64,000 bases of DNA. Origin: Gammaproteobacteria bacterium. Its GTDB lineage: Bacteria > Pseudomonadota > Gammaproteobacteria > Steroidobacterales > Foliamicaceae. The translations under genes were made by a program, and so were the position numbers. The notes beneath the pieces were generated by a model, which saw nothing but the letters and a program-made list of their open reading frames with translations, was not told where the DNA came from and searched no databases. Shown here in pieces: positions 7,774 through 63,951 of the stretch. The DNA lies in assembly GCA_009844425.1 (NCBI GenBank), contig VYBN01000003.1:24435-88434 (forward strand). The letters run 5' to 3'. The stretch's first letter is position 1. Each line of letters starts with the position of its first letter.

Positions 7774-9327
7774 ATGCCGACATTGACGTGGCTCACGCGA
7801 GAACAGGACATCGGCGCGACGAAGCGTGTACCCTATCGTTTGCTCGAAGAGGTTTCAGAGCATTCCGCGGGCGACCGCAGTACCGGCAACATGCTGATAC
7901 AGGGCGACAATCTCGAAGCGTTGAAGGCGCTTCTGCCGTTCTACGCCGGCCGGGTGAAGTGCATCTACATCGATCCTCCGTACAACACGCGATCGGCCTT
8001 CGAGCACTACGACGACAATCTTGAGCACACCAAGTGGCTCGCCATGATGTGGCCACGGCTGGAACTGTTGCGCGAACTGCTGTCGGAGGACGGTTCGATC
8101 TGGGTTTCCATCGACGATAACGAAGCGCACTACCTAAAGGTCGTCATGGACGAGCTATTGGGCCGCAAGTCGTTCGTAGCTGATATTGCTTGGCAGCGTA
8201 CACACACACGAGAAAATCGTACCGATATTTCCAACGTGCATGACAACATCCTTGTGTATGCGAAGAACCGCGATACTTGGCGTTACCTAAGAAATCCGCT
8301 TCCCAAGTCTCAGGAACAACTGCAACGGTTCAAGAATCCAGACGACGATCCTCGTGGAAGATGGTCATCTCTTCCCATTCACGCAAAAGCTGAGAAGGGG
8401 CGTCGAAAGGAACAGTTCTTTACGATTACTCTTCCTTCGGGAAGAAACATTGATCCACCGCCGGGTCGTTGTTGGTTGTACACAGAGGAGAGATTTCGGC
8501 AAATGTGCGCCGACAATCGAATATGGTTCGGAAAGCAGGGCAATAACGCGCCACGGCTCAAGAACTTCTTGTCTGAAGTTCAGAGTGGCTTGGTTCCCTC
8601 AACGTATTGGTCGCACAAAGACGTTGGAACTACCGGTACGGCCAAGAGCGAGGTTGTAAAACTATTCGGAGGCCAGACACCATTCTCAACTCCCAAACCC
8701 GAAGCGCTAATCGAGAGAGTTATTCATATTGCAACCAACCCCGGCGACCTTGTTCTTGATTCTTTTCTCGGTTCTGGAACGACGGTAGCCGTCGCTCACA
8801 AAATGAACAGGCGCTACATCGGTATTGAGATGGGAGATCATGCGATTACGCACTGCGCGCCGCGGCTTCAGAAGGTAATCGACGGGGAACAGGGAGGCAT
8901 TTCCGAGAGCGTCGGTTGGAAAGGTGGCGGCGGATTCCGCTTCTATCGGCTGGGCCCGCCCGCGTTCGACGCGGACGGACGCATACGGCCGGAAATTGGA
9001 TTCCCTGTGCTTGCCGCGCATATCTGGTTCTCCGAAACGGGCGCTCCGTGGGATGGCATCGGCGACTCACCGTTGCTCGGAATTCACGACGGGCGGGCCT
9101 TTGCGCTGCTCTACAACGGAATCCTGGGCGATAAAAGCCCCGGAGGCGGCAACGTGCTGACCCGAGGGACACTCGCCTTGATTCGCAAGGCGTTAACGGA
9201 AGCCTCCCAAGACTTTTACGGGACGCTGACCGTGTATGGTCAGCAATCACGGCTCACTCCTGCAACGCTGGAACGTGAGCGCGTCGCCTTCAAACAGACA
9301 CCCTACGACATTCACTCGCGAACCTGA
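7774..9327 (+). CDS. mod: Type III restriction-modification DNA methyltransferase (Mod)
   Basis: 517 aa. IYIDPPYNT (motif IV) precedes DSFLGSGTT (motif I), the beta-class order. A Res helicase-nuclease gene follows 8 nt downstream. Confidence 0.9.
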   Translation: MPTLTWLTREQDIGATKRVPYRLLEEVSEHSAGDRSTGNMLIQGDNLEALKALLPFYAGRVKCIYIDPPYNTRSAFEHYDDNLEHTKWLAMMWPRLELLRELLSEDGSIWVSIDDNEAHYLKVVMDELLGRKSFVADIAWQRTHTRENRTDISNVHDNILVYAKNRDTWRYLRNPLPKSQEQLQRFKNPDDDPRGRWSSLPIHAKAEKGRRKEQFFTITLPSGRNIDPPPGRCWLYTEERFRQMCADNRIWFGKQGNNAPRLKNFLSEVQSGLVPSTYWSHKDVGTTGTAKSEVVKLFGGQTPFSTPKPEALIERVIHIATNPGDLVLDSFLGSGTTVAVAHKMNRRYIGIEMGDHAITHCAPRLQKVIDGEQGGISESVGWKGGGGFRFYRLGPPAFDADGRIRPEIGFPVLAAHIWFSETGAPWDGIGDSPLLGIHDGRAFALLYNGILGDKSPGGGNVLTRGTLALIRKALTEASQDFYGTLTVYGQQSRLTPATLERERVAFKQTPYDIHSRT

Positions 9328-9335
9328 GCGGGGCG

Positions 9336-11978
9336 GTGGAACTCAAGCAGTATCAGACCGACACGCTTGGTGCCCTGCGCCATTTTTTCGAGGAATCGCG
9401 GATGGGCGGGCCGAAGAATTCCTACGAGTCCTTCACACAGGAACCGGAACAGGCCGGTCGGCTCGGTCCTTACGGAGGCGCTTACCAGCCGCTGAAAGGA
9501 CTGCCTGAAGTTCCTTATGTTTGCCTGCGTTTGCCGACCGGAGGCGGTAAGACGATCCTGGCGGCGCATGCCGTGAGCATCGTCCGCGATGCCTGGATCG
9601 AGAAGGACTGGCCGATGGCGTTGTGGCTGGTTCCGACCAACACGATTCGCCGCCAGACCGCGGAGGCGCTGAAGAACCACCGTCACGCCTACCGCCGTGT
9701 TCTGGACGAAGCCTTCAGTGGCCGCGTGCGCGTCTTCGACATCGCCGACTTCACGCATATCCGCCCGCACGACATCCGCGAGAATTGCTGCATTGTAGTA
9801 GGCACAATTCAGACGCTTCGCACCCGGAGCACCGAAGGCCGCAAGGTGTATGGCCATAACGAGAACCTGGAGGCGCATTTCTCGAAGCTGGCTGCTCACC
9901 CGCCCGGACTTGAGGAGGCGCCCAACGGTGGTCCGAAGTTCTCTTTCGCCAACCTGATGCATCTCCAACGCCCGCTGATGATCGTGGACGAGGCGCATAA
10001 CGCCGTGACGGGCCTGACCCGCGAAATGCAGGCGCGGGTCAACCCCTGCGCCATCGTCGAGTTCACCGCAACGCCCCGCACCCATTCCAACATCCTGCAT
10101 AGCGTCACGGCCAGCGAACTGAAAACCGAGGAGATGGTTAAGCTGCCGGTGATGCTCTCCGAGTACGACACATGGCAAAACGCGGTGAACGGCGCCGTCG
10201 CTGCGCGCATGTCGCTGGCCGAAACGGCCGCAGACGATCCCGATCACATCCGGCCGATTGTCCTGTTCCAGGCTCAGAAAAAGAACGGCGAAGTGCCGGC
10301 CGCGGCGCTCAAGCGGCACCTGATTGAAGTCGAGCAGATTCCCGAAGACCGAATTGCCATCGCGACGGGCGACCAAAGGGGATTGGATGGCATCGATCTG
10401 TTCGATCCCGACTGTCCCATCGAGCACGTCATCACAGTAGAGGCGCTAAAGGAGGGCTGGGACTGCTCGTTCGCCTACGTTTTTTGTTCCGTGTCGCGCA
10501 TACAGAGCGCGAAGGATGCTGAACAACTGCTTGGCCGCGTACTAAGGATGCCTTATGCCAAGCGGCGAAAGACGGACGCATTGAACCGGGCTTACGCCCA
10601 TCTGTCCGAGCCTTCGTTCGGCGCGGCGGCGAAGGCGCTGGTGGACAAGCTGATCGCCATGGGATTCGACGAAGAGGAGGCGCGCGAAAGCATCGAGCGC
10701 ATGCAAGCCGAGACCGATGATGCGGATAACGATTTATTTTCTCGGCGCAACGAAATCCTGCCGGTTTTCACTTACGCGCTTCCCGAAGGCCGGGGGCTGG
10801 TCTCACAGCTTGAGGCGCTGGACGGTCTCCTGGTGCGTGATGCCGATGACGGCGGAGTTGAAATCCGCATTCGGGGCCATTTGGACGCGAAAACGGAACG
10901 AGCAATTGCGGAACTGCTGCCGACCCGGGAACGCAAGGCGCTCACGAAGGCGGCCGCAGCCTATCGAAGCACGACTGATACCGTGCTGTCTCCGGCACAA
11001 CGGGGCGAGAGTTTTGCTCTGCCGCGCCTTATGGCCGAGGTGCAAGGTGTCATTGAATTTGCCGACACCGACATTCTTATGGAGAGCCACGACTGGTCGC
11101 TTCGCAATCACCCATGGAGACCGGGAGAGGGCGAGTTCAATGTTCGGGAAACATCCCGCAGTTTTGAGATTGATCTCGACGGGAACCGCATCGCCTACCA
11201 GTTCGCGTCGGAGGAAGAGCAGTTGGCCCTGGACGTAGAAGTCGAAGGCTGGACGCCGGAGGCGCTTGTGCTGTGGCTCGATCGCCATGTGAGACAGCCG
11301 GACATTGGCCAGAGCGACCTGGTGGGCTGGCTGAGCAGCTTGGTGAACCACCTGGCCGTGTCGCGTGGAATGCCCATTGCCGCTCTCATGCGCTGCAAGT
11401 TCATTCTGGCCCGCAGCGTGCGCGACAGGCTCGCCGCGATAAGGACGATTGAACGCAAATGTGTCTATCAACGGCATCTGTTTGAGCCGGGCGCCAAGCC
11501 GGAAATCTCGTTCGATCACGCTTTTTCTTTCAAGGATGGGATGTATCGGGGCCAGCAACGCTATCGAGGACGCTGGAAGCCGCTCAAGCACTTTCTCGGC
11601 CCCGACTGCGTTCCGGATTTTGATGGCGCCGAAGGCGGTGAAGAGTTTCGGTGCGCGCAGGAAATCGACCGCTTACCGGGCCTGAAGTTCTGGCTGAGAA
11701 ACGTTGCGAGGCACCGAGATTCTTTCTGGCTGCCCACGGCGGCGGGCAGGTTTTATCCAGATTTCGTGGCGATGCTTGAGGATGGCCGGCTGCTGGTAGT
11801 GGAATATAAGGGTGGTCACATTGCTGAAAGCGCAGCCACGGCGGAGAAGCGCAACGTGGGTGCGCTTTGGGAACGCGAGAGCAATGGCAAGTGCGTGTTC
11901 GTGATGGCCGAAAAATCGGTCAACGGGGAGGATGCCCGGTCGCAAATCCTTGCCAAACTGGCGCCGCGATCGATCTGA
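9336..11978 (+). CDS. res: Type III restriction endonuclease Res subunit (DEAD/DEAH helicase plus PD-(D/E)xK nuclease)
   Basis: 880 aa with a GTG start. Contains Walker A (LPTGGGKT), MIVDEAHN (DEAH box) and a C-terminal nuclease-like YPDFVAMLEDGRLLVVEYKG. Confidence 0.9.
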   Translation: MELKQYQTDTLGALRHFFEESRMGGPKNSYESFTQEPEQAGRLGPYGGAYQPLKGLPEVPYVCLRLPTGGGKTILAAHAVSIVRDAWIEKDWPMALWLVPTNTIRRQTAEALKNHRHAYRRVLDEAFSGRVRVFDIADFTHIRPHDIRENCCIVVGTIQTLRTRSTEGRKVYGHNENLEAHFSKLAAHPPGLEEAPNGGPKFSFANLMHLQRPLMIVDEAHNAVTGLTREMQARVNPCAIVEFTATPRTHSNILHSVTASELKTEEMVKLPVMLSEYDTWQNAVNGAVAARMSLAETAADDPDHIRPIVLFQAQKKNGEVPAAALKRHLIEVEQIPEDRIAIATGDQRGLDGIDLFDPDCPIEHVITVEALKEGWDCSFAYVFCSVSRIQSAKDAEQLLGRVLRMPYAKRRKTDALNRAYAHLSEPSFGAAAKALVDKLIAMGFDEEEARESIERMQAETDDADNDLFSRRNEILPVFTYALPEGRGLVSQLEALDGLLVRDADDGGVEIRIRGHLDAKTERAIAELLPTRERKALTKAAAAYRSTTDTVLSPAQRGESFALPRLMAEVQGVIEFADTDILMESHDWSLRNHPWRPGEGEFNVRETSRSFEIDLDGNRIAYQFASEEEQLALDVEVEGWTPEALVLWLDRHVRQPDIGQSDLVGWLSSLVNHLAVSRGMPIAALMRCKFILARSVRDRLAAIRTIERKCVYQRHLFEPGAKPEISFDHAFSFKDGMYRGQQRYRGRWKPLKHFLGPDCVPDFDGAEGGEEFRCAQEIDRLPGLKFWLRNVARHRDSFWLPTAAGRFYPDFVAMLEDGRLLVVEYKGGHIAESAATAEKRNVGALWERESNGKCVFVMAEKSVNGEDARSQILAKLAPRSI

Positions 11979-12017
11979 GGACCTTTCCTGCCAAGTAACA
12001 GCGCTCGCAAAACGGCA

Positions 12018-12051
12018 TTGCCGTGATATGGTGGAATCCCTATAATCCACC
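12018..12051 (+). promoter_or_regulatory. putative sigma70 promoter with inverted-repeat operator for higBA
   Basis: TTGCCG (12018-12023), a 17-nt spacer, then TATAAT (12041-12046). The arms GGTGGA (12030-12035) and TCCACC (12046-12051) bracket the -10 box. Confidence 0.4.
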
Positions 12052-12063
12052 GCTATAGGTACC

Positions 12064-12420
12064 TTGTTGAAACCCCTCCGATGGGTCGGTTCGAGCAAGG
12101 GGGATCTGAGGCGGTTTCCCGATGCCGTGCAAGACTGCATGGGCTTTGCGATCTACCAAGCACAGATCGGCCTTCGGCACCGCGATGCCAAGCTGCTCAA
12201 GGGCTTTGGTCCGGGCATCCTTGAGGTCGCGGCGCGCCACGACGGAGACACCTACAGGGCGATCTACACCGTGCGGTTCCAAGCTGCGGTATATGTGCTG
12301 CACGCCTTTCAGAAGAAGGCGAAGCGGGGCATCGCCACGCCGAAGAAGGAACTCGACCTCGTCCGGCAGAGGCTGCGCATAGCCGACAGGGATCACCGCG
12401 GCATACAAGGCAGAGGATAA
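12064..12420 (+). CDS. higB: RelE/ParE-superfamily toxin, HigB / Gp49-like
   Basis: About 118 aa with a TTG start at 12064 or 12067. KPLRWVGSSKGDLRRFP ... VYVLHAFQKK is typical of HigB/DUF891 toxins. An XRE antitoxin gene follows. Confidence 0.8.
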   Translation: MLKPLRWVGSSKGDLRRFPDAVQDCMGFAIYQAQIGLRHRDAKLLKGFGPGILEVAARHDGDTYRAIYTVRFQAAVYVLHAFQKKAKRGIATPKKELDLVRQRLRIADRDHRGIQGRG

Positions 12421-12424
12421 GAAC

Positions 12425-12763
12425 ATGACAACATCCGACTCGAACGTGGAACCAGGTAGCGGCAACGTGTTTGCAGACCTCGGTCACCCGGGGGCCGAGG
12501 CTCACCTGCTGAAGGCTGAGCTCGTCGCCCGCATTGATGGCCTCGTGCGGCAGCGCGGCATAACCCAGTCCGAGGCCGCACGCCTTCTCGGCCTTGCCCA
12601 GCCCGATGTATCACGGCTGTTGCGCGGCGACTTCCGCGAATACTCTCTGGAGCGCCTGTTCCGTTTGCTGACCGCTCTCGGCCGCGATATCGACATCGTG
12701 ATCCGCCCGCCGCGCTCGACTGACGGAGGCAGGCTGCGCATCGCGGCTGCCGACACAGGCTGA
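12425..12763 (+). CDS. higA: XRE-family helix-turn-helix antitoxin (HigA-like)
   Basis: 112 aa. GNVFADLG ... ITQSEAARLLGLAQPDVSRLLRG ... FSLERL is the common HigA-type pattern. Starts 4 nt after the toxin gene ends. Confidence 0.8.
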   Translation: MTTSDSNVEPGSGNVFADLGHPGAEAHLLKAELVARIDGLVRQRGITQSEAARLLGLAQPDVSRLLRGDFREYSLERLFRLLTALGRDIDIVIRPPRSTDGGRLRIAAADTG

Positions 12764-12779
12764 TCCAGCTCGATGCGTG

Positions 12780-13748
12780 TCAGTCGGAGTCCATGGGCGT
12801 TTCGCCGTCCACGACGCGGCGGGCCGGGCCGGCTATCAGGGCGTCGGGGCCGCGGACGACTTCGCGGTCCTTGTCGGGATAAGGCAGCTTCATCAGGAAG
12901 TGCTGCAGGGCGGCGACACGGGCGCGCTTTTTGTCGTCGGACTTGATAACCGTCCAGGGCGCATCGGCGGTGTCTGTATAGAAGAACATCGCCTCCTTCG
13001 CTTCCGTGTAGTCTTCCCACTTGTCCAGCGATGCAAGATCGATCGGCGAGATTTTCCACTGTTTCAGCGGGTCGGTCCGGCGGCTGTCGAACCGGTGCGC
13101 CTGCTCCTCCTGGGAGACGGAAAAGTAGTACTTGAAAAGATGAATGCCGCTGTTCACCAGCATGCGCTCCAGGTTCGGACACTGGCGCATGAATTCGAGG
13201 TATTCCGCCCGGGTGCAGAAGCCCATCACCCGCTCCACGCCGGCGCGGTTGTACCAGGAACGGTCGAACAGCACGATTTCGCCTTCAGCGGGGAGATGCT
13301 GGATATAGCGCTGGAAATACCATTGGCCGCGCTCCCGGTCGTTGGGCTTTTCCAGGGCCACGACGCGCGCGCCGCGCGGATTCAAGTGCTCCATGAAGCG
13401 CTTTATCGTTCCGCCTTTGCCGGCGGCGTCGCGTCCTTCGCACAGAACCAGCACCTTTGCGCCCGATTCCTTGACCCAACGTTGAGCCTTGAGCAGTTCG
13501 ACCTGCAGCGAGGCTTTGTGCGCCTCGTATTCCTTGCGCCGCATCTTGTCGGTATAGGGATAGACGCCCTCTTGGAATACGCGCTTTATGGCGTCGGCGG
13601 AGTGGGGAGCGCTCGGGAGACCGAGGTCCGCCTGCGCCGCGGGCGCTTTTTCCTCCGTGGCGTTCGGCTGCTGTGCGCGCAGCTGCTCGCCTGTCCCGCG
13701 AGCGGCCTGATCGCTCCCGTTGCCCTCTATGCCGGCCTCCCGGTTCAT
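12780..13748 (-). CDS. ppk2: polyphosphate kinase 2
   Basis: LCEGRDAAGKGG (Walker A) and FDRSWYNRAGVERVMGF are PPK2 hallmarks. ATG at 13748; the track ORF starts 6 nt upstream at a GTG. Confidence 0.9.
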   Translation of the reverse strand: MNREAGIEGNGSDQAARGTGEQLRAQQPNATEEKAPAAQADLGLPSAPHSADAIKRVFQEGVYPYTDKMRRKEYEAHKASLQVELLKAQRWVKESGAKVLVLCEGRDAAGKGGTIKRFMEHLNPRGARVVALEKPNDRERGQWYFQRYIQHLPAEGEIVLFDRSWYNRAGVERVMGFCTRAEYLEFMRQCPNLERMLVNSGIHLFKYYFSVSQEEQAHRFDSRRTDPLKQWKISPIDLASLDKWEDYTEAKEAMFFYTDTADAPWTVIKSDDKKRARVAALQHFLMKLPYPDKDREVVRGPDALIAGPARRVVDGETPMDSD

Positions 13749-16629: not shown

Positions 16630-16972
16630 GTGCTTCCTCGCCCTTTCTTCGCCCCCGTCCTCGTTGGAGGCGCTGTTCGCGCCGGGGCATCGGCGCTCAC
16701 TGGCTCGATTCTCGCTGTCCCTGCTCCCTCGCCCTTCGTTCGTCCCCCTCCTCGTTGGAGGCGCCATCCCTGGCTCGATTCTCGCTGTCCCTGCTCCAAC
16801 GCTCCCACGAGGAGGGGGCCGAACGAAGGGCTTTAGTCGGCGCCGCCGGCTGAAGGTTTCTCTTGCACACCGGTTCCGGGAACGTCGGAGGCAGGATGCC
16901 GACGCCGAGCCCACAGGGATGTGCTTGTTGGCGGTTCCCGGAACCGGTGTGCAAGAGGAACCGAGGGTTGCG
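16630..16972. repeat. composite palindromic intergenic element (truncated B1 copy, full B1 hairpin, B2 hairpin)
   Basis: B1 arms 16732-16755 and 16807-16830 (24 bp, 1 mismatch) flank a ~51-nt core. B2 arms 16855-16883 and 16934-16962 (29 bp, 1 mismatch) flank a 50-nt core. A truncated B1 copy lies at 16641-16727. The whole unit recurs at 54557-54810. Confidence 0.9.
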
Positions 16973-42443: not shown

Positions 42444-42553
42444 GGTTGCTTCCGCATCCTGTTCCCCGGAGACGCCGACGAGCACATCCCTGTGGGCTCG
42501 GGTTCCGGCATCCCTGCCTCACAAGCTCCGGGGAACAGGATGCGGAAGCAACC
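42444..42553. repeat. B2-core hairpin in inverted orientation with a different stem
   Basis: Arms 42444-42470 and 42527-42553 are perfect (27 bp). The reverse complement of the 56-nt loop contains GAGGCAGGGATGCCGG..CGAGCCCACAGGGATGTGCTCG, the core seen at 16884-16933 and 54719-54769. Confidence 0.85.
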
Positions 42554-54556: not shown

Positions 54557-54810
54557 GTGCTTCCTCACCCTTTGTTCGTCCCCCTCCTCGTTGGAGTCGC
54601 CATCCTGGCTCGATTCTCGCTGTCCCTGCTTCAACGCTCCCACGAGGAGGGGGACGAACAAAGGGCTTAAGCCGGCGCCGCCTGCTATAGGTTCCTCTTG
54701 CACCCCGGTTCCGGGAACGTCGGAGGCAGGGATGCCGACGCCGAGCCCACAGGGATGTGCTCGCTGGCGGTTCCCGGAACCGGGGTGCAAGAGGAACCGA
54801 AGGGTTTGCG
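54557..54810. repeat. composite palindromic intergenic element (B1 hairpin plus B2 hairpin)
   Basis: B1 arms 54568-54591 and 54642-54665 (24 bp perfect) flank a 50-nt core. B2 arms 54690-54718 and 54770-54798 (29 bp perfect) flank a 51-nt core. The unit is colinear with 16630-16972. Confidence 0.9.
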
Positions 54811-54845: not shown

Positions 54846-54861
54846 TGTGCATAATATGCGC
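54846..54861 (+). promoter_or_regulatory. possible ArgR operator (ARG-box-like palindrome) in an AT-rich promoter stretch
   Basis: The palindrome GCATA-A-TATGC (54849-54859) sits in the only AT-rich patch upstream of argR. Half-sites and spacing differ from the E. coli TGAAT-w4-ATTCA consensus. Confidence 0.25.
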
Positions 54862-54907
54862 CTTCTATTCTTTTTATGAGCATCTTATGCCAATGGGGAC
54901 GGACAGT

Positions 54908-55345
54908 ATGGCCCGCCGCCACGAGGTCATCGCAGACATCATCACGGGCCAGACCGTGGCCAGTCAGGCGCAACTCGGCCGGCTGCTGGCTGAGCGCGGC
55001 ATACGCGTTACGCAGTCGTGCATAAGCCGTGACCTGTCGGTCATAGGCGCGGTCAAGCGGGGCCGCGCGTACTCCGTTGCGTCCTCGGATATTTCCGAGG
55101 GGGACCGGCAAACGCTTGCCACTTATGTGCGCGGCCTGGCCAACGCCGGACCCAACCTCGCGATCGTGCGGACCGCGACCGGGGCGGCCCAGCGGATTGC
55201 GCTGTTCCTCGATCGCTGCGGCTGGCCCGAGATCGTGGCGACCGTGGCCGGGGACGATACGATCTTCGTCGCCACCCGCAACCGGGACGAACAGCGCGTA
55301 TTGCTGGCGCGCCTGCGCCGCGAAATGACCCCGGTTTTATCCTGA
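54908..55345 (+). CDS. argR: arginine repressor
   Basis: MARRHEVIADIITGQTVASQAQLGRLLAERGIRVTQSCISRDL is a winged-helix N-terminal domain. The C-terminal domain has GDDTIFV. Alternative ATGs lie at 54887 and 54893. Confidence 0.85.
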   Translation: MARRHEVIADIITGQTVASQAQLGRLLAERGIRVTQSCISRDLSVIGAVKRGRAYSVASSDISEGDRQTLATYVRGLANAGPNLAIVRTATGAAQRIALFLDRCGWPEIVATVAGDDTIFVATRNRDEQRVLLARLRREMTPVLS

Positions 55346-55370: not shown

Positions 55371-56597
55371 ATGAGCACCTCCTCAATAGTGCTGGCTTAT
55401 TCCGGCGGACTGGATACCTCGTTCTGCGTGCCCTGGCTGACCGAGAAGTATCGGCGCCCGGTGGTAACGCTTACGGTCAATACCGGCGGCATCGATTCCG
55501 GCCAGGCTGAATCGCTGGAGCGCCGGGCCCTGGCGTTGGGCGCCCGGCGGCATCTGCTGGTGGAAGCGCGCCCGCAGTTCTTCGATGAAGTGATCCGCCA
55601 TCTCATCGCCGGCAACGTGCGGCGCGGGCACACGTATCCGCTGTGCGTGGGCGCCGAGCGGAGCGTGCAGGCGAAAATCCTGGCCCGCACCGCGCAGGAG
55701 CTGGGCAGCGACACCGTAGCGCATGGCTGCACCGCCGCCGGCAACGACCAGTTCCGTTTCGAAATGGCCATGCGCGCGCTGGCGCCCGAAATCACCGTGC
55801 TGGCGCCGGTGCGCGACGAGTCCTTCCAGCGTCGCGAGCAGGTCGCGTACCTGGCCGAGCGTGGCGCGCCGCAACTTCCGCAGGGCGGCGATTACTCGAT
55901 CAACCGGGGGCTGTGGGGCGTGACGATCGGCGGCCGCGAGACCCTGACTTCCGCGGGCTCCATCCCGGAAACGGCCTGGGTGCTGTCCGCGGGTGCGCTG
56001 GAGGATCCGCTTCCCCGGGAGCCGCATGAACTGGAATTCGAGGCGGGGCTGCCGGTTGCCTGGGACGGCGAAGCCATGCAGCCCGTGGAGCTGATCGAAA
56101 CGCTCGAAACAGCCGGTGGCCGGTTCGGAATCGGCCGGGGCATCCACCTGGGCGACACGATACTCGGCTCCAAGGGCCGGGTGGCCTACGAAGCGCCGGC
56201 CGCGGAAATTCTCCTGTGCGCGCATCGCGAACTGGAAAAACTCACGCTGGGCGCCGGACAGATGCGGGTCAAGGACACGCTGGCGGCCGTCTACGGCGAT
56301 CTGGTTCACGAGGGCAGGCAACTCGATCCGGTCTGCCGGGACATCGAGGCCTTTTTCGACTGTTCGCAGGCGCGGGTATCGGGGCGCGTGCACCTGGCGC
56401 TGCAGCCCGGAGCGGTCTGGGTCCGCGGCGTCGAATCGCCCCATTCGCTGCTGGCCGCAAGCCGGGGCGTGTACGGGGAGAAGGCCGGGGAATGGTCTCC
56501 GCGCGATGCGCTGGGCGCGGCCCGGGTCATGTCGCTGCCCGGCATGCTGCACAGTCGCGTGGGCGAAATGGCTAAGGGAGGTGGCGGCGATGCGTAG
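55371..56597 (+). CDS. argG: argininosuccinate synthase
   Basis: The N-terminal motif is VLAYSGGLDTS. Product length is 408 aa. Confidence 0.95.
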   Translation: MSTSSIVLAYSGGLDTSFCVPWLTEKYRRPVVTLTVNTGGIDSGQAESLERRALALGARRHLLVEARPQFFDEVIRHLIAGNVRRGHTYPLCVGAERSVQAKILARTAQELGSDTVAHGCTAAGNDQFRFEMAMRALAPEITVLAPVRDESFQRREQVAYLAERGAPQLPQGGDYSINRGLWGVTIGGRETLTSAGSIPETAWVLSAGALEDPLPREPHELEFEAGLPVAWDGEAMQPVELIETLETAGGRFGIGRGIHLGDTILGSKGRVAYEAPAAEILLCAHRELEKLTLGAGQMRVKDTLAAVYGDLVHEGRQLDPVCRDIEAFFDCSQARVSGRVHLALQPGAVWVRGVESPHSLLAASRGVYGEKAGEWSPRDALGAARVMSLPGMLHSRVGEMAKGGGGDA

Positions 56598-57651
56598 CGT
56601 AGTGATCGACAAGATGGCCTCGGTCGCCTCGGGCCTGGACCTGGGGCGCGAATTGCGCGTGGGCGAGAGCATTCCCGGCGAGGAAGGCGTGATCGTGGCC
56701 GTGGAAGTCCTGAATGACAAATCCTCGTATAACCGGCTGGAACTGGCCAGCGGCCGCATGGCGCGCGTACGCAGCGGCGATATCGTGGTGGGCGCCCTCG
56801 GTCACCGCAAGGCCCTGTTCGGCTACTCCGGCCACCTGCCGGAGACCGTAAAGCGCGGCGACGTGCTGCAGTTGCTCAACATTGGCGGCGTGATAGGCGT
56901 GTGCGACTCCGTCAACGCCACAATGGGTTCGCCCTTTGACGTGCGCGTTCTGGGCGTGGTGCTGGAGTTCCCGTACCTGGGCCAACGGGTCGGCGTGCCC
57001 GCGCGGGTCGGCGGACAGGCGCTGGATGGCGAAGGCCCGGGCGAACTGAACCTGGGGGGCGTTCCGGTCGTGGCCCTGGCCGGAACCTGCATGAACTCGG
57101 GCAAGACCGCGGCAGCCTGTGCGATTATCGGCCGGCTGCGGCACGAGGGTTACGTGGTGGACGCCTTCAAGGCCACCGGCGTATCGCTGCGCCGGGACAT
57201 TCTGGCGATGGAAGACGCCGGCGCACGCAATACCGCGATCTTCACCGATTTCGGGATTGTCAGCACGGCGCCGGAGAACGCGCCGGCGCTGGTGCGTTCG
57301 ATGCTGCGGCAGATGGCGGCGGCAGCGCCCGACGTGATCCTGTTCGAGTTGGGTGACGGCATACTGGGCGCCTATGGCGTGGAGGCCATCCTCGCCGACG
57401 AGGGGATACGCTCGTCCATTTCCTGCCTGCTGCTTTGCGCCAGCGATCCCGTCGCCGCCTGGGGCGGGGCCCGGCTGCTCAAGGATCTTTACGGGATCGA
57501 GGTGGCCGCCGTTACCGGTCCGGCCACGGACAACCAGGTGGGACTGGACATCCTGGGGCAGCGAGTCGGCGTGCCGGGCTATAACGCGCTAACGCAAAGC
57601 GCGGAGCTCGGCGAGTTCGTGGCCCGCAACGTCTCGCTGGGGCGGCTGTGA
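56590..57651 (+). CDS. uncharacterised P-loop protein (GTxxxxGKT, BioD/CobQ/DUF1611-like spacing) embedded in the arg operon
   Basis: 353 aa. The ATG follows GGGAGGTG and overlaps the argG end by 8 nt. The TGA overlaps the argC GTG. The only motif I recognise is LAGTCMNSGKTAAA. Confidence 0.8.
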   Translation: MRSVVIDKMASVASGLDLGRELRVGESIPGEEGVIVAVEVLNDKSSYNRLELASGRMARVRSGDIVVGALGHRKALFGYSGHLPETVKRGDVLQLLNIGGVIGVCDSVNATMGSPFDVRVLGVVLEFPYLGQRVGVPARVGGQALDGEGPGELNLGGVPVVALAGTCMNSGKTAAACAIIGRLRHEGYVVDAFKATGVSLRRDILAMEDAGARNTAIFTDFGIVSTAPENAPALVRSMLRQMAAAAPDVILFELGDGILGAYGVEAILADEGIRSSISCLLLCASDPVAAWGGARLLKDLYGIEVAAVTGPATDNQVGLDILGQRVGVPGYNALTQSAELGEFVARNVSLGRL

Positions 57652-58697
57652 ACATTCCGGCCGTAATTCTGGGCGCTTCCGGGTACGTGGCGGGCGAACT
57701 GCTGCGCATCCTCGCCGGTCATCCGGACTTCCATATCGCCGGGGCGATTTCGGAAAGCAACGCGGGCAAGCCGGTGGAATCCGTGTTTCCCAACCTCACG
57801 GGCATCTGGCCGGAGTTCCGCTTCCGGCCCTTCTCCGAGCTGGGCGAGGTGCTCGGGGAGCGTTGCGCGGTTTTTTCCTGCGCTCCGCATGGCGCTAGCG
57901 CGGGTCTGATCGCGGCGGCGCTGAAGGTGGCCGACGACAGGGGCGCCCGGGTCCGCATCGTGGACGCTTCGGCGGACTTTCGCTTCGCCGACGCGGATGC
58001 GTACGAGCAGGTGTACGGCGCAGGCCACGGCGCACCGGAACTGCTGTCCTCGTTCTCCTGCGCCCTGCCGGAACATCGCGCGCAGGCCGCCACTCGCCAT
58101 ATCGGCCATCCCGGCTGTTTCGCCAGCGCATTGCTGCTGGCGTCGGTGCCCCTGATGCGCCACGGGCTCACCGCCACGCCCTTGTTCGCCAGCGGCGTTA
58201 CCGGCAGCACGGGCGCCGGCAAACAGCCTCTTCCGACCACTCATCATCCGGTCCGGCATTCCAATATGTTCGCCTATCGCCCACTGAAGCACCGGCACGC
58301 GCCGGAAGTCGAAGCCGTGTGCGAGGCGGTGAGCGGAGTGCGGCCGGACCTGCGTTTCGTGCCGCACTCGGGGCCGTTCGCGCGCGGCATTTACATGACG
58401 ATGCAGGCGGGGCTCAAGCAGTCCGTCAACGCGGAGCAGCTCAGGGAGGCCTTTGCGGATACCTATGCCGGAGCTCCGTTCGTGCACGTGATCGACGGGG
58501 CGCCGAAGCTCAAGGACGTGGTTGGAGGAAACCATGCTCATATCGGGCTCACTGCGGACCGGGGATCGGTGGCCGTATTCGTGGTTCTGGACAACCTCGT
58601 CAAGGGCGCGGCCGGCGGCGCCGTGCAATGGATGAATCGCCTGTATGGTCTTGAGGAAACCGCGGGCCTTGCGGCCGCGGGGCCGGCGTGGACGTGA
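57648..58697 (+). CDS. argC: N-acetyl-gamma-glutamyl-phosphate reductase
   Basis: VILGASGYVAGELLRIL (NAD-binding) and the active-site Cys context GHPGCFASA. Confidence 0.9.
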   Translation: MNIPAVILGASGYVAGELLRILAGHPDFHIAGAISESNAGKPVESVFPNLTGIWPEFRFRPFSELGEVLGERCAVFSCAPHGASAGLIAAALKVADDRGARVRIVDASADFRFADADAYEQVYGAGHGAPELLSSFSCALPEHRAQAATRHIGHPGCFASALLLASVPLMRHGLTATPLFASGVTGSTGAGKQPLPTTHHPVRHSNMFAYRPLKHRHAPEVEAVCEAVSGVRPDLRFVPHSGPFARGIYMTMQAGLKQSVNAEQLREAFADTYAGAPFVHVIDGAPKLKDVVGGNHAHIGLTADRGSVAVFVVLDNLVKGAAGGAVQWMNRLYGLEETAGLAAAGPAWT

Positions 58698-59899
58698 GCG
58701 TCGCGTCACGGACCGCGGCCGCCGCCGATGTGCGCGGCGCCGAGGCAGCGCACCTGGCCCAGGTGTACGCGCAATTTCCGTTCGAGGTCGTGTCGGGCGA
58801 CGGCGCTTACCTCAACTGCGCCGATGGCCGCCGCTTGCTGGACCTGTACGGCGGGCACGCGGTATGCGCCCTCGGCTACGGGCATCCGCGGCTTACGCAG
58901 ACCATCCGGCGGCAGGCCGGCGAGCTGCTGTTCGCCAGCAACGCGGTGGCTTTGCGCGTTCGGGCGCGAGCGGCCGACAAGCTCGCGGAGTTCGCTCCGC
59001 CGGGGCTTGATCGGGTTTTCTTCGTCAATTCGGGGGCGGAAGCCAACGAGAACGCGCTGCGCCTGGCCTGCAAGCTCACGGGGCGGTCGCGCGTGGTCGC
59101 CCTGGAGCACGGTTTTCACGGCCGCACCGCGGCCGCCGGCGCGGTCACCTGGGGGGCGCGGGAGCGCTGGTACGGGTTTCCGAATACGCCTTTCGACGTG
59201 GCCTTCGCGCCTCGCGACAACGCCGCTGCCGTGGTCTCGCACATCGACGGCGAAACCGCCGCGGTCATTCTCGAGCCCATACAGGGCCTCGCGGGCGCGT
59301 TCGCCCTGAGCGACGACTTTCTGCGCGACGTGCGCGCCGCCTGCGACAGGCACGGCGCGTTTCTGATCGCCGATGAGGTGCAGTGCGGTATGGGCCGAAG
59401 TGGCCTGCCGTTCGCCGTAATGCATTCGGGCGTGGCGCCGGACATGATCACTGCCGCCAAGTCCCTGGGCGCGGGCTTTCCCTGCGCGGCGCTGCTGATG
59501 CGCGAGGAAGTCGCGACCCAGCTCGTCGTCGGCGACCTGGGCACTACCTTCGGCGGCGGTCCGCTGGCCTGCGCGGCCATCGAGGCAGTGCTGGACGCGA
59601 TGGAAGAGGAACAACTTCCGGCGCAGGCCGCGGAGCGCGAGCGGCAGATCCGCTCGACCTGCATCGCGGGTCCGGTTGAGGCGATCGACGGACGCGGACT
59701 GCTGCTGGGACTGAAATGCGCCGGCGGCGCGCGGCCGGTTCGAGACGACCTGCTTGCGGCCGACATTCTTGCCGGGACCAGCGCGCTGCCCGAATGGTTG
59801 CGCCTGATGCCCCCGCTTAACCTGCGCGAAAAAGAGGCGGCGCTACTGGCCGCCGCCGTGCATCAACTCGGCTCTTGTCAGGAGCAGGCAAATGAGTGA
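58688..59899 (+). CDS. argD: acetylornithine-type class-III aminotransferase
   Basis: GHAVCALGYGHP, FFVNSGAEANE, DEVQCGMGRSG and TAAKSLG (PLP Lys) motifs. The start is GTG at 58688 or 58694. Confidence 0.9.
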   Translation: MDVSVASRTAAAADVRGAEAAHLAQVYAQFPFEVVSGDGAYLNCADGRRLLDLYGGHAVCALGYGHPRLTQTIRRQAGELLFASNAVALRVRARAADKLAEFAPPGLDRVFFVNSGAEANENALRLACKLTGRSRVVALEHGFHGRTAAAGAVTWGARERWYGFPNTPFDVAFAPRDNAAAVVSHIDGETAAVILEPIQGLAGAFALSDDFLRDVRAACDRHGAFLIADEVQCGMGRSGLPFAVMHSGVAPDMITAAKSLGAGFPCAALLMREEVATQLVVGDLGTTFGGGPLACAAIEAVLDAMEEEQLPAQAAERERQIRSTCIAGPVEAIDGRGLLLGLKCAGGARPVRDDLLAADILAGTSALPEWLRLMPPLNLREKEAALLAAAVHQLGSCQEQANE

Positions 59900-60908
59900 C
59901 ATCCAACGATTCGACGACCTCGCGGACTTTTCGCCCGAGCAGATAGCGGCGCTTCTGGCCCTGGCCGGCCGGCTGGAGAAGCATCCGGAACCGGAGGCCC
60001 TGAAAGGCAAGGTGCTGTCGCTGCTGTTTCTGAATCCATCGCTCCGAACGCTGGCTTCGTTTCAGGCTTCCATGACTCGCCTTGGCGGGGGGGCGTTCGT
60101 GATCTCGCCGGAAATGTCCATCCACGGGCTGGAGACGCGGCCTGGAATCGTGATGGACGGCGCCGCGGCCGAGCACGTCAAGGAAGCCGTGCCGGTGATC
60201 GCCTCGTACGGCGACGCGCTGGGCTTGCGGGCGTTCGCCGAACGCCGCGACCTGGTGGAGGACCTGGAAGACCGCGAGTATCGGAGCATGGCTGAGCTGG
60301 TTTCAACGCCCCTGATCAACATGGAGTCGGCCATCAACCATCCCTGCCAGAGCCTGGCCGACTGGAAGACCATGGACGACCTCGGCGCCCCGGTTTCTGG
60401 GGGCAAGTTCGTCCTGAGCTGGGCCTACCATCCGCTCGCGCTTCCGCTTGCCGTGCCGGCCGCCACGATCCAGATGGCGGCCATGCGCGGAATGGACGTG
60501 ACCGTGCTACGCCCGGAGGGGTTCGAGCTGCCGCCCCAGGTCATGGACAAGGCCCGCACGCTGGCCGGGCGTTCCGGGGGGTCGGTCAGTGAAACGGACA
60601 ACCGTGCGGAGGCGCTTGACGGCGCTCACGTCCTGTACGCCAAGTCCTGGAGTTCGACGGTCCATTACGGCGACAAGCACGAGGACTACCAGTTGCGCAA
60701 CCGGCACGAGGACTGGTGCGTCGACGAAGACTGGTTCGCACCGGCCGAAGAGGACTGCCGGTTCATGCACTGCCTTCCGGTGCGTCGCAACGTGGTGGTG
60801 AGCGAGGCGGTGCTGGACGGGCCGCGCAGCGTAGTGGTGCCGGAAGCGCGCAACCGGATGTGGGTGCAGATGGCCGTGCTCTACGCGATGCTGGGGCCGG
60901 GCCTGTGA
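59892..60908 (+). CDS. argF: non-canonical (N-acyl-ornithine type, ArgF'-like) carbamoyltransferase
   Basis: It has HPCQSLAD and FMHCLPVRRN. It reads NPSLRTLAS where canonical OTC has STRTR, and YAKSWSS where canonical OTC has DxWxSMG. Confidence 0.75.
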   Translation: MSDIQRFDDLADFSPEQIAALLALAGRLEKHPEPEALKGKVLSLLFLNPSLRTLASFQASMTRLGGGAFVISPEMSIHGLETRPGIVMDGAAAEHVKEAVPVIASYGDALGLRAFAERRDLVEDLEDREYRSMAELVSTPLINMESAINHPCQSLADWKTMDDLGAPVSGGKFVLSWAYHPLALPLAVPAATIQMAAMRGMDVTVLRPEGFELPPQVMDKARTLAGRSGGSVSETDNRAEALDGAHVLYAKSWSSTVHYGDKHEDYQLRNRHEDWCVDEDWFAPAEEDCRFMHCLPVRRNVVVSEAVLDGPRSVVVPEARNRMWVQMAVLYAMLGPGL

Positions 60909-61840
60909 ACCGTTCTCGTCCCAGCGGCACCGGCTTCGGCGCGCTGCGCGCAGCGGCGCCGTACCTGCGGCTGTACCGCGGCCGCGTTTTCGTCGTGAAG
61001 CTGGGCGGCGAGGTGTTGAGCCGCAGCAGCCGCATAGAGGCACTGGTCGAGCAGGCCGGGGTCCTGCAGGCGCTGGGCGTGCGCGTGGTGATTGTGCACG
61101 GCGGAGGACCGCAGTCGACCGAATTGACCGAGCGCCTCAAACACAAGGCGCGCATGGTGGCCGGCCGCCGCGTAACCGGGCCGGAGGACCTGAAGGTGGC
61201 CTCGTACGTGCTCAACGGCGAGGTCAACACGCAATTGCTCGCCGCCTGCCGGGCCTGCGGTATCCCCGCGGTCGGCCTGTCCGGGGTCGACGCCGGCCTT
61301 GTGACGGCCCATCGCCGGCCGCCGGTGAAGATGGAAGGCGCCGGCGGCGAGCCGGTGGATTTCGGTTTTGTGGGAGATATCGACGAAGTCGAGCCGGCGG
61401 TCCTCGATCTCGTACTCGGGCAAGGCCTGATTCCGGTCGTAAGCCCGCTATCGGCCGACGGAGAGGGCAACCTGCTGAATATCAATGCGGACACCGTGGC
61501 CGCTTCGCTGGCGGTCGCCATCAAGGCGGAGAAGCTGGTTCTCACGATGGCCGCGCCGGGCATACTCGAGGATCGTTCCGATCCGTCCACGCTGCTGTCG
61601 TATCTTGATCTCGCCGGATTGCGCAAGCTGCGCGAGCAGGGATCGCTGGGCGACGGCATGCTGCCCAAGGCCACGGCCATCGAATGCGCCATCACGGGCG
61701 GCGTTCCGCGGGTTCACCTGGTGTCCGGAAGCACGCAGGACGCGTTGCTGCGCGAAGTATTCACCAACGAAGGATGCGGAACGCTGGTCGTGCGCAGCAT
61801 CGATGCGCTCTCCGCGGCGGAGCAGGAGGCGGCGAAGTAA
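60905..61840 (+). CDS. argB: acetylglutamate kinase (kinase domain only)
   Basis: The GTG start overlaps the argF' stop (GTGA). VVKLGGEV, VIVHGGGPQ and NINADTVA motifs. 311 aa with no GNAT extension. Confidence 0.9.
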   Translation: MNRSRPSGTGFGALRAAAPYLRLYRGRVFVVKLGGEVLSRSSRIEALVEQAGVLQALGVRVVIVHGGGPQSTELTERLKHKARMVAGRRVTGPEDLKVASYVLNGEVNTQLLAACRACGIPAVGLSGVDAGLVTAHRRPPVKMEGAGGEPVDFGFVGDIDEVEPAVLDLVLGQGLIPVVSPLSADGEGNLLNINADTVAASLAVAIKAEKLVLTMAAPGILEDRSDPSTLLSYLDLAGLRKLREQGSLGDGMLPKATAIECAITGGVPRVHLVSGSTQDALLREVFTNEGCGTLVVRSIDALSAAEQEAAK

Positions 61841-63033
61841 TGACGCGCCTGTGGGACAAGGGCGGCAAGCTGGACCAAACGGTCCTGCGCTATACGGCCG
61901 GCGAGGACCATGTCCTGGACGCGCGCCTGGTCGAGTACGACGTGAAGGCCTCGATCGCGCACGCCGGCATGTTGCATGCTGCAGGCTACCTGACGGACGA
62001 GGATCACGCCGCGATCGTCGACGGTCTGGCAGAACTGGCCGCCGGTCACGCGGCCGGGGCCTGGGCCATATCGCTGGAAGAGGAAGACGTGCATACGGCC
62101 CTCGAACGGCGCCTTGTAGCGCGGATCGGCGACGCCGGCGCCCGCGTGCACCTGGGACGTTCGCGCAACGACCAGGTGCTGGCGGCCCTGCGCCTGTATC
62201 TCAAGGACGCCGCTTCGTCCCTGCGGAAGGCTGCCGAGGCGGTGGCCGACGCGCTGGACGAACTTGGTGGGAGCCAGGGTGAACTGCCGCTGCCCGGTTA
62301 CACGCACATGCAGCAGGCCATGCCGAGCAGCGTAGCCTTATGGGCGGGGGCCTATGCAGCGGAACTGCGCGACGACGCGTCCGGTTTTCGGTCCGCCGTG
62401 CGCCGACTGGACCGCAACCCGCTCGGCAGCGCCGCGGGCTTCGGCGCGCCCGGGCTGAAGCTGGATCGTGAACACACCCGCAAGGCCCTTGGTTTCGCCG
62501 AAGTGCATGAGCCGGTCACGGCCGTGCAGCTATCGCGCGGCAAGGCCGAAGCCGGGCTGGCGTTCGAATGCGCGCTGCTGGTCCAGGACCTGGGCCGGCT
62601 TGCCGGCGACCTCCTGCTGTTTTACACGCAGGAGTTTGCGCTCGTTGACCTGGCGCCGGAAGTGACCACCGGCTCGTCCATCATGCCCCAGAAGCGTAAT
62701 GCCGACGCCCTGGAGCTGGTGCGCGCCGCCGGCGCTACCGTGCGCGCTTCCTTGCTGGAAATCCTTGGCATTCCCGCATCGCTGCCTTCCGGGTATCAGC
62801 GCGACCTGCAGCGCATCAAGGCGCCGCTGTTCCGCACCATCGATCTTGCCGGCGAAAGCTGCCATGTCGTTTGCCGTATAGTGCGCGCTTTGCGCTTCAA
62901 CCCGGAACGCTGCGGGGAACTGACATCGGCCCGGGGCCTGCGCGCCGCCGAGCGCGCCAACCGGCTGGCGGTGGAGCAGGGATTGAGTTTTCGCGAAGCG
63001 TACCGGCAGGTGGCGGAGCAGGAGAAAGAGTGA
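61840..63033 (+). CDS. argH: argininosuccinate lyase (C-terminally short)
   Basis: The ATG overlaps the argB TAA by 1 nt. The fumarate-lyase signature GSSIMPQKRN lies at residues 278-287. The product is only 397 aa. Confidence 0.85.
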   Translation: MTRLWDKGGKLDQTVLRYTAGEDHVLDARLVEYDVKASIAHAGMLHAAGYLTDEDHAAIVDGLAELAAGHAAGAWAISLEEEDVHTALERRLVARIGDAGARVHLGRSRNDQVLAALRLYLKDAASSLRKAAEAVADALDELGGSQGELPLPGYTHMQQAMPSSVALWAGAYAAELRDDASGFRSAVRRLDRNPLGSAAGFGAPGLKLDREHTRKALGFAEVHEPVTAVQLSRGKAEAGLAFECALLVQDLGRLAGDLLLFYTQEFALVDLAPEVTTGSSIMPQKRNADALELVRAAGATVRASLLEILGIPASLPSGYQRDLQRIKAPLFRTIDLAGESCHVVCRIVRALRFNPERCGELTSARGLRAAERANRLAVEQGLSFREAYRQVAEQEKE

Positions 63034-63482
63034 GCGGCAGAATATGGCACCCCAGGGCGTTCGATCGTCCCGAGCAGCTCAACGCCCTGGAGAAGGACCG
63101 GATGCTGGGACATCTGGGCGTGGAGATTGTCGAGATCGGCGACGACTACCTGCGCGCCCGCATGCCCGTGGACTATCGCACCCAGCAGCCGTTCGGGTTG
63201 CTGCACGGCGGCGCCTCGGCGGTCCTGGCGGAATCGGTCGGAAGCTGGTCGTCCTACCTCACGACGCCTCCCGGCGAGTACCAGGTCCTCGGCCTGGAAA
63301 TAAACGTCAGCCACCTGCGCCCGGCGAAATCGGGTTACGTGTACGGCACAGCCCGCCCGGTGCGGCTCGGCAGCGTGGTACACGTCTGGGACATACGGAT
63401 CACCGACGAAGCGGACGTTCTGCTCAGCGTTTCCAGGCTGGCGACTTCCGTTCGTCCGCTTAAGCAATCTGGCGCGTCATAA
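63030..63482 (+). CDS. hotdog-fold (PaaI/YbdB-type) thioesterase
   Basis: GTG at 63030 overlaps the argH TGA (GTGA). LGVEIVEIGDDYLRARMPVD...GLLHGGASAVLAES is the PaaI-family pattern. Confidence 0.8.
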   Translation: MSGRIWHPRAFDRPEQLNALEKDRMLGHLGVEIVEIGDDYLRARMPVDYRTQQPFGLLHGGASAVLAESVGSWSSYLTTPPGEYQVLGLEINVSHLRPAKSGYVYGTARPVRLGSVVHVWDIRITDEADVLLSVSRLATSVRPLKQSGAS

Positions 63483-63855: not shown

Positions 63856-63951
63856 CTCGGCACTTGCCCCCTCCTCGCGGGAGCGTTGGAGCAGGGATAG
63901 CGAGAATCGAGCCAGGATGGCGACTCCAGCGAGGAGGGGGCAAGTGCCGAG
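63856..63951. repeat. B1-core hairpin in inverted orientation with a different stem
   Basis: Arms 63856-63878 and 63929-63951 are perfect (23 bp). The reverse complement of the loop is TGGAGTCGCCATCCTGGCTCGATTCTCGCTATCCCTGCTCCAACGCTCCC, which is the B1 core. Confidence 0.85.

Follow-up and report, generated by a model that had tools for sequence, protein, structure and literature searches.

A predicted N-succinyl-L-glutamate synthase in a gammaproteobacterial arginine operon

The closest described counterpart of the gene considered here, designated X, is ACG33_RS14135 (A0A127FCT3) of Steroidobacter denitrificans, a hypothetical protein of the arginine (arg) cluster for which the role of N-succinylglutamate synthase has been predicted (10.1101/2024.10.14.618325). 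S. denitrificans can grow on minimal medium although no ArgA is recognisable in it, and ArgE is also reported missing. Homologues of ACG33_RS14135 are found virtually always inside arg operons and never co-occur with ArgA homologues, and the ArgF' encoded next to them has A, P, S or V at position 92 in 90% of cases. Foldseek finds the protein weakly similar to DgcN (PDB 7XRJ), a D-glutamate acetyltransferase, and in some clusters a separate argE candidate lies beside the homologue (10.1101/2024.10.14.618325). X belongs to the arginine operon in a 64,000-nucleotide stretch of DNA (the window) from a Gammaproteobacteria bacterium (assembly GCA_009844425.1, contig VYBN01000003.1, positions 24,435 to 88,434), which is identical to contig VXVX01000006.1 of the metagenome-assembled genome (MAG) GCA_009836205.1. 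Its gene context, the fusion of a homologue to ArgB and the reported exclusion with ArgA make it probable that X is the first-step enzyme that makes the substrate of ArgB. More tentatively, and by analogy with DgcN, X may be an N-succinyl-L-glutamate synthase that uses succinyl-coenzyme A (succinyl-CoA), a reading given a probability of roughly 0.4. The first-step idea is already in print as a prediction (10.1101/2024.10.14.618325), and X would be a further member of the predicted family.

The features of X, in window coordinates, are as follows.

56590..57651, + strand: X, a 353-aa two-domain protein, predicted N-succinyl-L-glutamate synthase, without a Pfam or NCBIfam family at cut-off
56576..56583, + strand: Shine-Dalgarno-like GGGAGGTG, inside argG, with a 6-nt spacer to the ATG of X, read directly from the sequence
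57076..57117, + strand: Walker A motif or P-loop LAGTCMNSGKTAAA, residues 163-176 of X

X is translationally coupled within the arginine operon, whose order is argR-argG-X-argC-argD-argF'-argB-argH-thioesterase gene. Its ATG at 56590 lies upstream of the argG stop codon (TAG, 56595-56597), an overlap of 8 nt, and its own stop codon (TGA, 57649-57651) shares 4 nt (GTGA) with the GTG start of argC (57648-57650). From argG to the thioesterase gene the successive overlaps are 8, 4, 10, 8, 4, 1 and 4 nt. The initial annotation had described this ATG, the argG and argC overlaps, the 1-10-nt junctions throughout and a GTxxxxGKT-type motif, and all of these are borne out by the sequence, the motif being LAGTCMNSGKTAAA. 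The open reading frame (ORF) is taken to be a real gene because it has more than 7000 homologues (the best matches reaching E ~1e-215), a start Met kept by all 26 relatives aligned, and a GC content at third codon positions of 0.84, the usual value for genes of the window.

How firmly is X tied to arginine synthesis in other genomes? Eighty species-representative loci were fetched and the arg proteins of the window were placed on them by tblastn. In 80/80 of them argC directly follows X, and the commonest order is argR-argG-X-argC-argD-argF'-argB-argH. Reduced clusters also occur: argR-X-argC-argD-argB in nine MAGs labelled Longimicrobiales/Gemmatimonadetes or Gammaproteobacteria, and just X-argC-argB in five Steroidobacteraceae-type loci. 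The gene thus keeps to the part of the pathway in which N-acyl-glutamate is handled. Among the distant homologues, three of the four bacterial ones examined are arg-linked, namely P0141 (36% identity), between argG and argC, P0250 (27%), in the order argG-argF'-X-argC, and P0202 (30%), in the order argG-X-argF'. The neighbourhood survey proposed in the initial annotation thus finds X arg-linked well beyond the window.

The link also extends to a single polypeptide. Four independent metagenome contigs encode P0226, a protein of 626 aa or longer in which X runs in a continuous frame into an ArgB-like amino-acid kinase; the best match of the C-terminal half of P0226 is the argB model TIGR00761, and an upstream GTG start gives the protein the full N-domain.

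The fusion gene (7848-9881 of L089, JGI 3300040949, and on three other contigs) lies outside an arg operon and has an arginase-family gene as its neighbour on the opposite strand. Two apparent X-ArgC fusions, P0170 and P0350, match only parts of ArgC and were set aside as frameshift or gene-calling artefacts; P0252, an ArgG fragment followed by X, was likewise discounted as evidence.

The conventional enzymes were sought at several levels. Pfam and NCBIfam found no ArgA-, ArgJ- or ArgE-type protein in the arginine cluster, as the initial annotation had stated, and no GNAT acetyltransferase or ArgJ domain in X. Pfam scans of coding-like ORFs elsewhere in the 64 kb window likewise gave no GNAT, ArgJ or M20 domain. 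ArgB, noted in the initial annotation as a 311-aa protein without a GNAT fusion, gives only AA_kinase in Pfam and has no acetyltransferase domain. The clustered flanking ORFs of the 80 X loci contain no conserved GNAT or M20 partner; their cluster representatives, read by eye, resemble polA, NudC-like, esterase and other sequences.

Family, fold and conserved residues of X

At E <= 1e-3 the family comprises at least 7191 proteins among 8000 scored candidates, all of them unnamed or 'hypothetical', and an exhaustive hidden Markov model search resolves it into 1653 clusters at 50% identity. Species-representative genomes give at least 564 matches. The hosts are mainly Gammaproteobacteria, including Steroidobacteraceae- and Chromatiales/Chromatiaceae-labelled MAGs, together with Longimicrobiales of the Gemmatimonadota. 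Homologues from Steroidobacteraceae-labelled MAGs are 64-66% identical to X and occupy the same operon position; because of these homologues and of the matching description, X is treated as a putative member of the ACG33_RS14135-type family. A homologue search from a Steroidobacteraceae sequence returned no named S. denitrificans protein among the matches listed.

At the outer fringe of the family stand homologues on fungal-type contigs with 28-31% identity (L088 8001-9056, GCA_009193465.1, ML742132.1; L095/L096 9001-10086). One of them, P0243, retains the GKT of the P-loop and the second Lys. The neighbours are genes for a citrate synthase, an MFS transporter and a fungal Zn-cluster regulator in one case and PP2C, ACBP and RNase III genes in the other.

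Searched alone, X matches no Pfam family at E <= 0.01 and nothing above cut-off in NCBIfam, where MobB at E 0.003 is the sole match, and a simple PDB sequence search gave no solved relative. Family models were also tested, and conservation counted, over 58 diverse relatives down to 27% identity. MobB is the commonest weak match among them (36-39/58). PF07755 (DUF1611_C) is matched by 33 of the relatives below its gathering score, which none reaches, with a best E of 1.3e-5, and in P0244, the one such match whose range was inspected, the alignment is limited to the P-loop stretch. Of the 45 Pfam families matched, the 25 commonest do not include PF17396 (DUF1611_N), nor do the 25 listed of 76 NCBIfam families include the DgcN model. 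The BioD model TIGR00347 is matched weakly by 12 relatives (best E 1.1e-4), its cut-off not being reached, AAA_26 weakly by 11, and individual relatives give further sub-threshold matches to CbiA, BioD, CobB and CobQ. Profile searches of the PDB, with the full-length protein and with the P-loop domain alone, found BioD (four distinct sequences, E 8.5e-4 to 1e-2), FtsY and the signal recognition particle (SRP), and MobB, with no DUF1611/DgcN entry at E <= 10; nor did phmmer from a relative with a weak DUF1611 match reach 7XRJ. Since the models of neither family recognise it, X is placed outside both DUF1611 and BioD.

From 26 close relatives AlphaFold2 gave only a poor model (predicted local distance difference test, pLDDT, 72.6), which was replaced by one built from the alignment of the 58 diverse relatives, with a pLDDT of 95.9 and a predicted template modelling (TM) score of 0.92. 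In this model residues ~1-150 are all-beta and residues ~155-353 form an alpha/beta P-loop domain of the SIMIBI class. Foldseek against the PDB places dethiobiotin synthetase (DTBS) at the top, with E 1.3-1.6e-6 for 1dbs and 1dts and target-normalised TM scores of 0.57-0.61 for 1dbs, 1dts and 3of5 (0.61 for 3of5); SRP GTPases and HypB follow. The DUF1611 structure 2obn_B comes at rank 45 (E 1.7e-4, TM ~0.39-0.40), and the DgcN structure 7XRJ is not among the top 50. The comparison proposed in the initial annotation, a Foldseek search with an AlphaFold model, therefore returns DTBS first and DUF1611 as a weaker match. Of the annotation's suggestion of a DTBS-, CobQ- or DUF1611-type P-loop, the SIMIBI fold, the primacy of DTBS and the match to 2obn all stand, but the models of DUF1611 and DgcN are not matched at their cut-offs. 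The predicted structure therefore describes X as a putative SIMIBI, DTBS-like nucleotide-binding enzyme with an extra N-domain.

A residue was called conserved when present in at least 53 of the 58 sequences. G171, K172 and T173 are kept in 56-57 of the relatives, in a P-loop of the form G-(T/S)-x-M-x-x-G-K-T with looser first positions; the P-loop of X itself reads G165-T-C-M-N-S-G-K172-T173 and aligns with that of BioD. Twenty-two residues past the P-loop lysine, K194 is invariant and aligned to the lysine of the BioD 'CKP' motif. The G-K-T, D220 and E253 are kept in 55-57 relatives, E253 ending a hydrophobic strand that is followed by G255 in the motif E-L-G-D-G. Further conserved positions are D203, G211-A212, F218-x-D220-x-G222, D248, Y262 and D286, as well as G310, which lies inside a looser (T/S)-G-P-x-T-D-N motif (309-315, including T313-D314-N315); in the N-domain they are R73 and P84. 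The conserved polar residues beyond the P-loop (R73, K194, D203, D220, E253, Y262, D286 and T313-D314-N315) fit the pattern of an enzyme active site, as judged from the alignment.

Acyl group, acyl donor and rival reactions

The nature of the acyl group is suggested by the carbamoyltransferase of the operon. The ArgF' residue equivalent to E92 is Ala in the window (VMDGAAAEH) and in 57/57 related loci containing argF'. The best PDB match of ArgF', 3l02, is an entry for the Xanthomonas campestris AOTCase that has Ala, where other entries have Glu (DGDT-E-EH). PMC7311316 and 10.1101/2024.10.14.618325 both quote Shi et al. (2007) for the finding that replacement of E92 by A, P, S or V switches the carbamoyltransferase to N-succinylornithine. 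ArgF' is thus predicted to be specific for N-succinylornithine, and because of this Ala the pathway is most likely a succinylated one and the automatic label 'N-acetylornithine carbamoyltransferase' (NF003384) is probably wrong. The initial annotation had proposed that X supplies a missing step by protecting the amine of glutamate; context, fusion and preprint support this, with the acyl group probably succinyl and not acetyl. Of the two steps considered there, acylation and deacylation, the first is favoured, while the reduced clusters, the fusion to ArgB and the P-loop fold speak against the deacylase.

For X we infer the catalysed step, the acyl group and the acyl donor as follows. In the first committed step of arginine synthesis X would transfer an acyl group, most likely succinyl, to the amine of L-glutamate, with N-succinyl-L-glutamate as the product, and would thereby substitute for ArgA or ArgJ. 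ArgB, ArgC, ArgD and the succinylornithine-type ArgF' would then process this compound onward. The donor would be succinyl-CoA, with the P-loop domain of X holding the nucleotide part of the CoA thioester. Succinyl-CoA is chosen because DgcN provides a precedent for glutamate N-acylation by a P-loop protein, and the same precedent, with the common two-domain size and the common glutamate substrate, is why an acyl-CoA transferase is favoured. The DgcN reaction is acetyl-CoA-dependent, and to our knowledge no other characterised two-domain P-loop enzyme acylates the amine of glutamate.

Several points weigh against this proposal. X misses the DUF1611 and DgcN models, and its nearest solved relatives are the ATP-dependent dethiobiotin synthetases. 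Its intact Walker A motif, DTBS-like Lys and Walker-B-like Glu would suit the binding of ATP at least as well as that of CoA. The tie to the ACG33_RS14135 family is a putative one, made by a matching description and the 64-66% identical Steroidobacteraceae MAG homologues. Finally, three distant homologues have no arg linkage: the bacterial P0184, and P0243 and P0265, whose contigs are eukaryotic-type and apparently fungal. Members at the outer fringe of the family may therefore have a different function.

The rival that survives best holds that X is an ATP-dependent succinate:L-glutamate ligase, in which the P-loop domain would phosphorylate a carboxylate of succinate and the alpha-amine of glutamate would attack the resulting acyl phosphate, with no CoA thioester involved. 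Such activation of a carboxylate or carbamate is the chemistry of dethiobiotin synthetase, CobB/CobQ and CTP synthase. A ligase is a serious rival because the nearest characterised relatives of X are ATP-dependent formers of C-N bonds and the ATP-site residues are conserved. Thus DTBS entries (1dbs, 1dts and 3of5, E ~1e-6) lead its Foldseek matches, BioD is the sole solved kind of relative credited by sequence profile where DUF1611/DgcN gives nothing at E <= 10, and the sub-threshold NCBIfam matches go to MobB, CobB, BioD and CobQ, with DgcN absent from the 25 listed of 76. The invariant K194, aligned with the 'CKP' lysine, and the conservation of G-K-T, D220 and E253 (55-57/58) point the same way. 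However, DgcN, the only P-loop protein characterised as N-acylating glutamate, is reported to be an acetyltransferase; with two domains and ~350 aa, X is laid out like DUF1611 and not like the single-domain DTBS; and the acyl-CoA thioesterase gene that recurs in some operons hints weakly at thioester chemistry. The ligase is thus possible but the less favoured of the two, and the same doubtful standing is given to the wider proposition that X is either a CoA-independent ATP ligase with DTBS-like acyl-phosphate chemistry or a bifunctional enzyme that also covers the ArgE step. Such a ligase would make the route of N-protection a previously undescribed one, and if the proposition were true the family would form a new enzyme class, widespread in Gammaproteobacteria and Gemmatimonadota and with offshoots on fungal-type contigs.

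Very unlikely is a place for X at the deprotection end of the pathway, either as an ArgE replacement acting on N-succinylcitrulline or, filling both gaps, as an ArgJ-like enzyme that recycles the succinyl group onto glutamate. ArgA and ArgE are indeed both missing from the cluster and the window, as both are reported to be from S. denitrificans, and X adjoins argG, whose enzyme would use the deprotected product; yet the reduced clusters X-argC-argB and argR-X-argC-argD-argB are without argF' and argG, the natural fusion partner of X is ArgB, and the preprint notes a separate argE candidate alongside X in some clusters. We know of no amidohydrolase with the fold of a P-loop NTPase. Equally improbable is an accessory role as a nucleotide-dependent adaptor, assembly factor or regulator in the manner of a MobB- or HypB-type SIMIBI NTPase, for which MobB as the most frequent weak match (36-39/58) and HypB and SRP GTPases among the Foldseek matches might speak, but which would leave the first step without any candidate enzyme and is hard to square with the conservation of many polar residues beyond the nucleotide site, the N-domain included, and with the mutual exclusion with ArgA homologues in the preprint.

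The question matters since the first arginine step is without a recognisable enzyme in hundreds of environmental bacterial species, which automated annotation, failing to recognise the first-step enzyme, calls arginine auxotrophs or leaves with a 'hypothetical protein' in mid-operon. The succinylated arginine pathway is found in Bacteroidota. If X is an N-succinyl-L-glutamate synthase, this gap would be closed, the pathway would extend beyond that phylum, and a P-loop enzyme unrelated to GNAT and ArgJ would join the independent solutions for the first step.

Other genes of the operon and of the window

The remaining genes of the operon are listed below.

54887..55345, + strand: argR, arginine repressor, 152-aa form (Pfam Arg_repressor + Arg_repressor_C)
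55371..56597, + strand: argG, argininosuccinate synthase, 408 aa (PF00764 + PF20979; TIGR00032, 281 bits, cut-off 268)
57648..58697, + strand: argC (TIGR01850, 298 bits, cut-off 233.6)
58688..59899, + strand: argD-type class-III aminotransferase, 403 aa (PF00202)
59892..60908, + strand: argF', N-acylornithine carbamoyltransferase, 338 aa (NF003384, 340 bits, cut-off 288)
60905..61840, + strand: argB, N-acylglutamate kinase, 311 aa (TIGR00761, 200.7 bits, cut-off 151)
61840..63033, + strand: argH, argininosuccinate lyase, short form, 397 aa (TIGR00838, 312 bits)
63030..63482, + strand: hotdog-fold PaaI/EntH/MenI-type thioesterase, 150 aa (PF03061; TIGR00369, 120 bits)

A longer TTG ORF for argR begins at 54698, where public gene calls use the ATG at 54887, and ArgR scores 100 bits against TIGR01529, under the cut-off. 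The best NCBIfam models for the argD-type protein are acetylornithine/succinylornithine transaminases, every one below cut-off. The version of this gene in one metagenome assembly from the same organism has ~41 nt more than that of the window, an insertion that breaks its 3' end (386 aa + 30 aa; L001 12099-13351 against L002 12099-13310) and reflects either strain variation or a fault of the assembly. ArgH covers positions 11-387 of the 455 of TIGR00838, with Lyase_1 as its only Pfam domain; because nearly all related loci have an ArgH of ~398-402 aa, the short form is a trait of the lineage and not a truncation.

The thioesterase gene begins within the last 4 nt of argH. Among the 80 loci it follows argH only in the clade of the window and a few other lineages, and since it is not a universal partner it is left out of the mechanism. 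It also lies directly 3' of argH in the unrelated Steroidobacteraceae-type loci L035, L040 and L078; L066 and L072 carry a homologue ~4 kb downstream.

Upstream of argR an intergenic, interspersed repeat of ~245 bp (54558-54800) holds two hairpins with 29-nt arms that are 100% and 97% complementary. A copy with 92% identity is found at 16722-16964 and partial copies at 63867-63940 (inverted) and 42479-42520, one of the partial copies sitting just downstream of the arginine operon; the repeat looks like an element of the repetitive extragenic palindromic (REP) or miniature inverted-repeat transposable element (MITE) type. Before and across the argR start codon is an AT-rich inverted pair, GCATAATATGC and GCATCTTATGC (54849-54859 and 54880-54890), possible candidate ARG boxes for the autoregulation of argR. 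A promoter and terminator scan was uninformative, shuffled controls yielding more sites than the operon itself. Elsewhere in the window a type III restriction-modification pair (within 7774-13000) comprises an N6_N4 DNA methylase (7774-9327) and a ResIII helicase/nuclease (9336-11978), and is followed by a Gp49/HigB-like gene (12064-12420) and an HTH_37 gene (12425-12763) that look like a toxin-antitoxin module.

Comparison with known systems

X resembles the ACG33_RS14135 family in that it is without a family assignment, lies inside an arg operon beside a predicted succinyl-type ArgF' and may have a remote structural tie to DUF1611/DgcN. Its arg linkage (80/80) and the Ala of ArgF' (57/57) reproduce the traits of that family. 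Unlike the preprint's match to DgcN, DTBS outranks DUF1611 in the case of X, and 7XRJ falls outside the Foldseek top 50.

DgcN and the other DUF1611 proteins (PF07755 + PF17396; 2obn, 7XRJ) have a two-domain layout of ~350 aa, with an N-domain and then a GTxxxxGKT P-loop domain, as does X. DgcN and the proposed X would also share glutamate as substrate and N-acylation as reaction. However, DgcN acts on the D isomer and in catabolism, whereas X is tied to the biosynthesis of L-arginine, and the N-domain of X is predicted to be all-beta, whereas DUF1611_N is Rossmann-like.

The best structural and profile matches of X are BioD and the ATP-binding domains of CobB, CobQ and CTP synthase. With BioD it has in common a P-loop of the form GT(C/D)xxxGKT, a Lys 22 residues downstream and a Glu that ends the hhhhE-x-G-x-G strand. 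It differs from BioD in the extra 150-aa beta N-domain, in an arginine context instead of one of biotin or cobalamin, and in its scores against the BioD models, all of which fall far short of the cut-offs (E about 1e-3). For the ligase reaction a precedent is found in the LysX and ArgX ligases of the LysW pathway, which form an amide on the amine of glutamate at the expense of ATP; unlike X they have the ATP-grasp fold and a carrier protein as acyl partner, and a LysW-like gene is absent here.

The step proposed for X is the same as that of ArgA (AAK + GNAT), ArgJ, the short GNAT N-acetylglutamate synthases (NAGS), the fused synthase-kinase NAGS/K and BT3761 of Bacteroides, the proposed N-succinylglutamate synthase of that genus. 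X is unlike the classical N-acylglutamate synthases in being an unrelated P-loop protein with neither the GNAT nor the ArgJ fold. Nevertheless, the fusion of X to ArgB parallels the kinase-synthase fusions of ArgA and NAGS/K.

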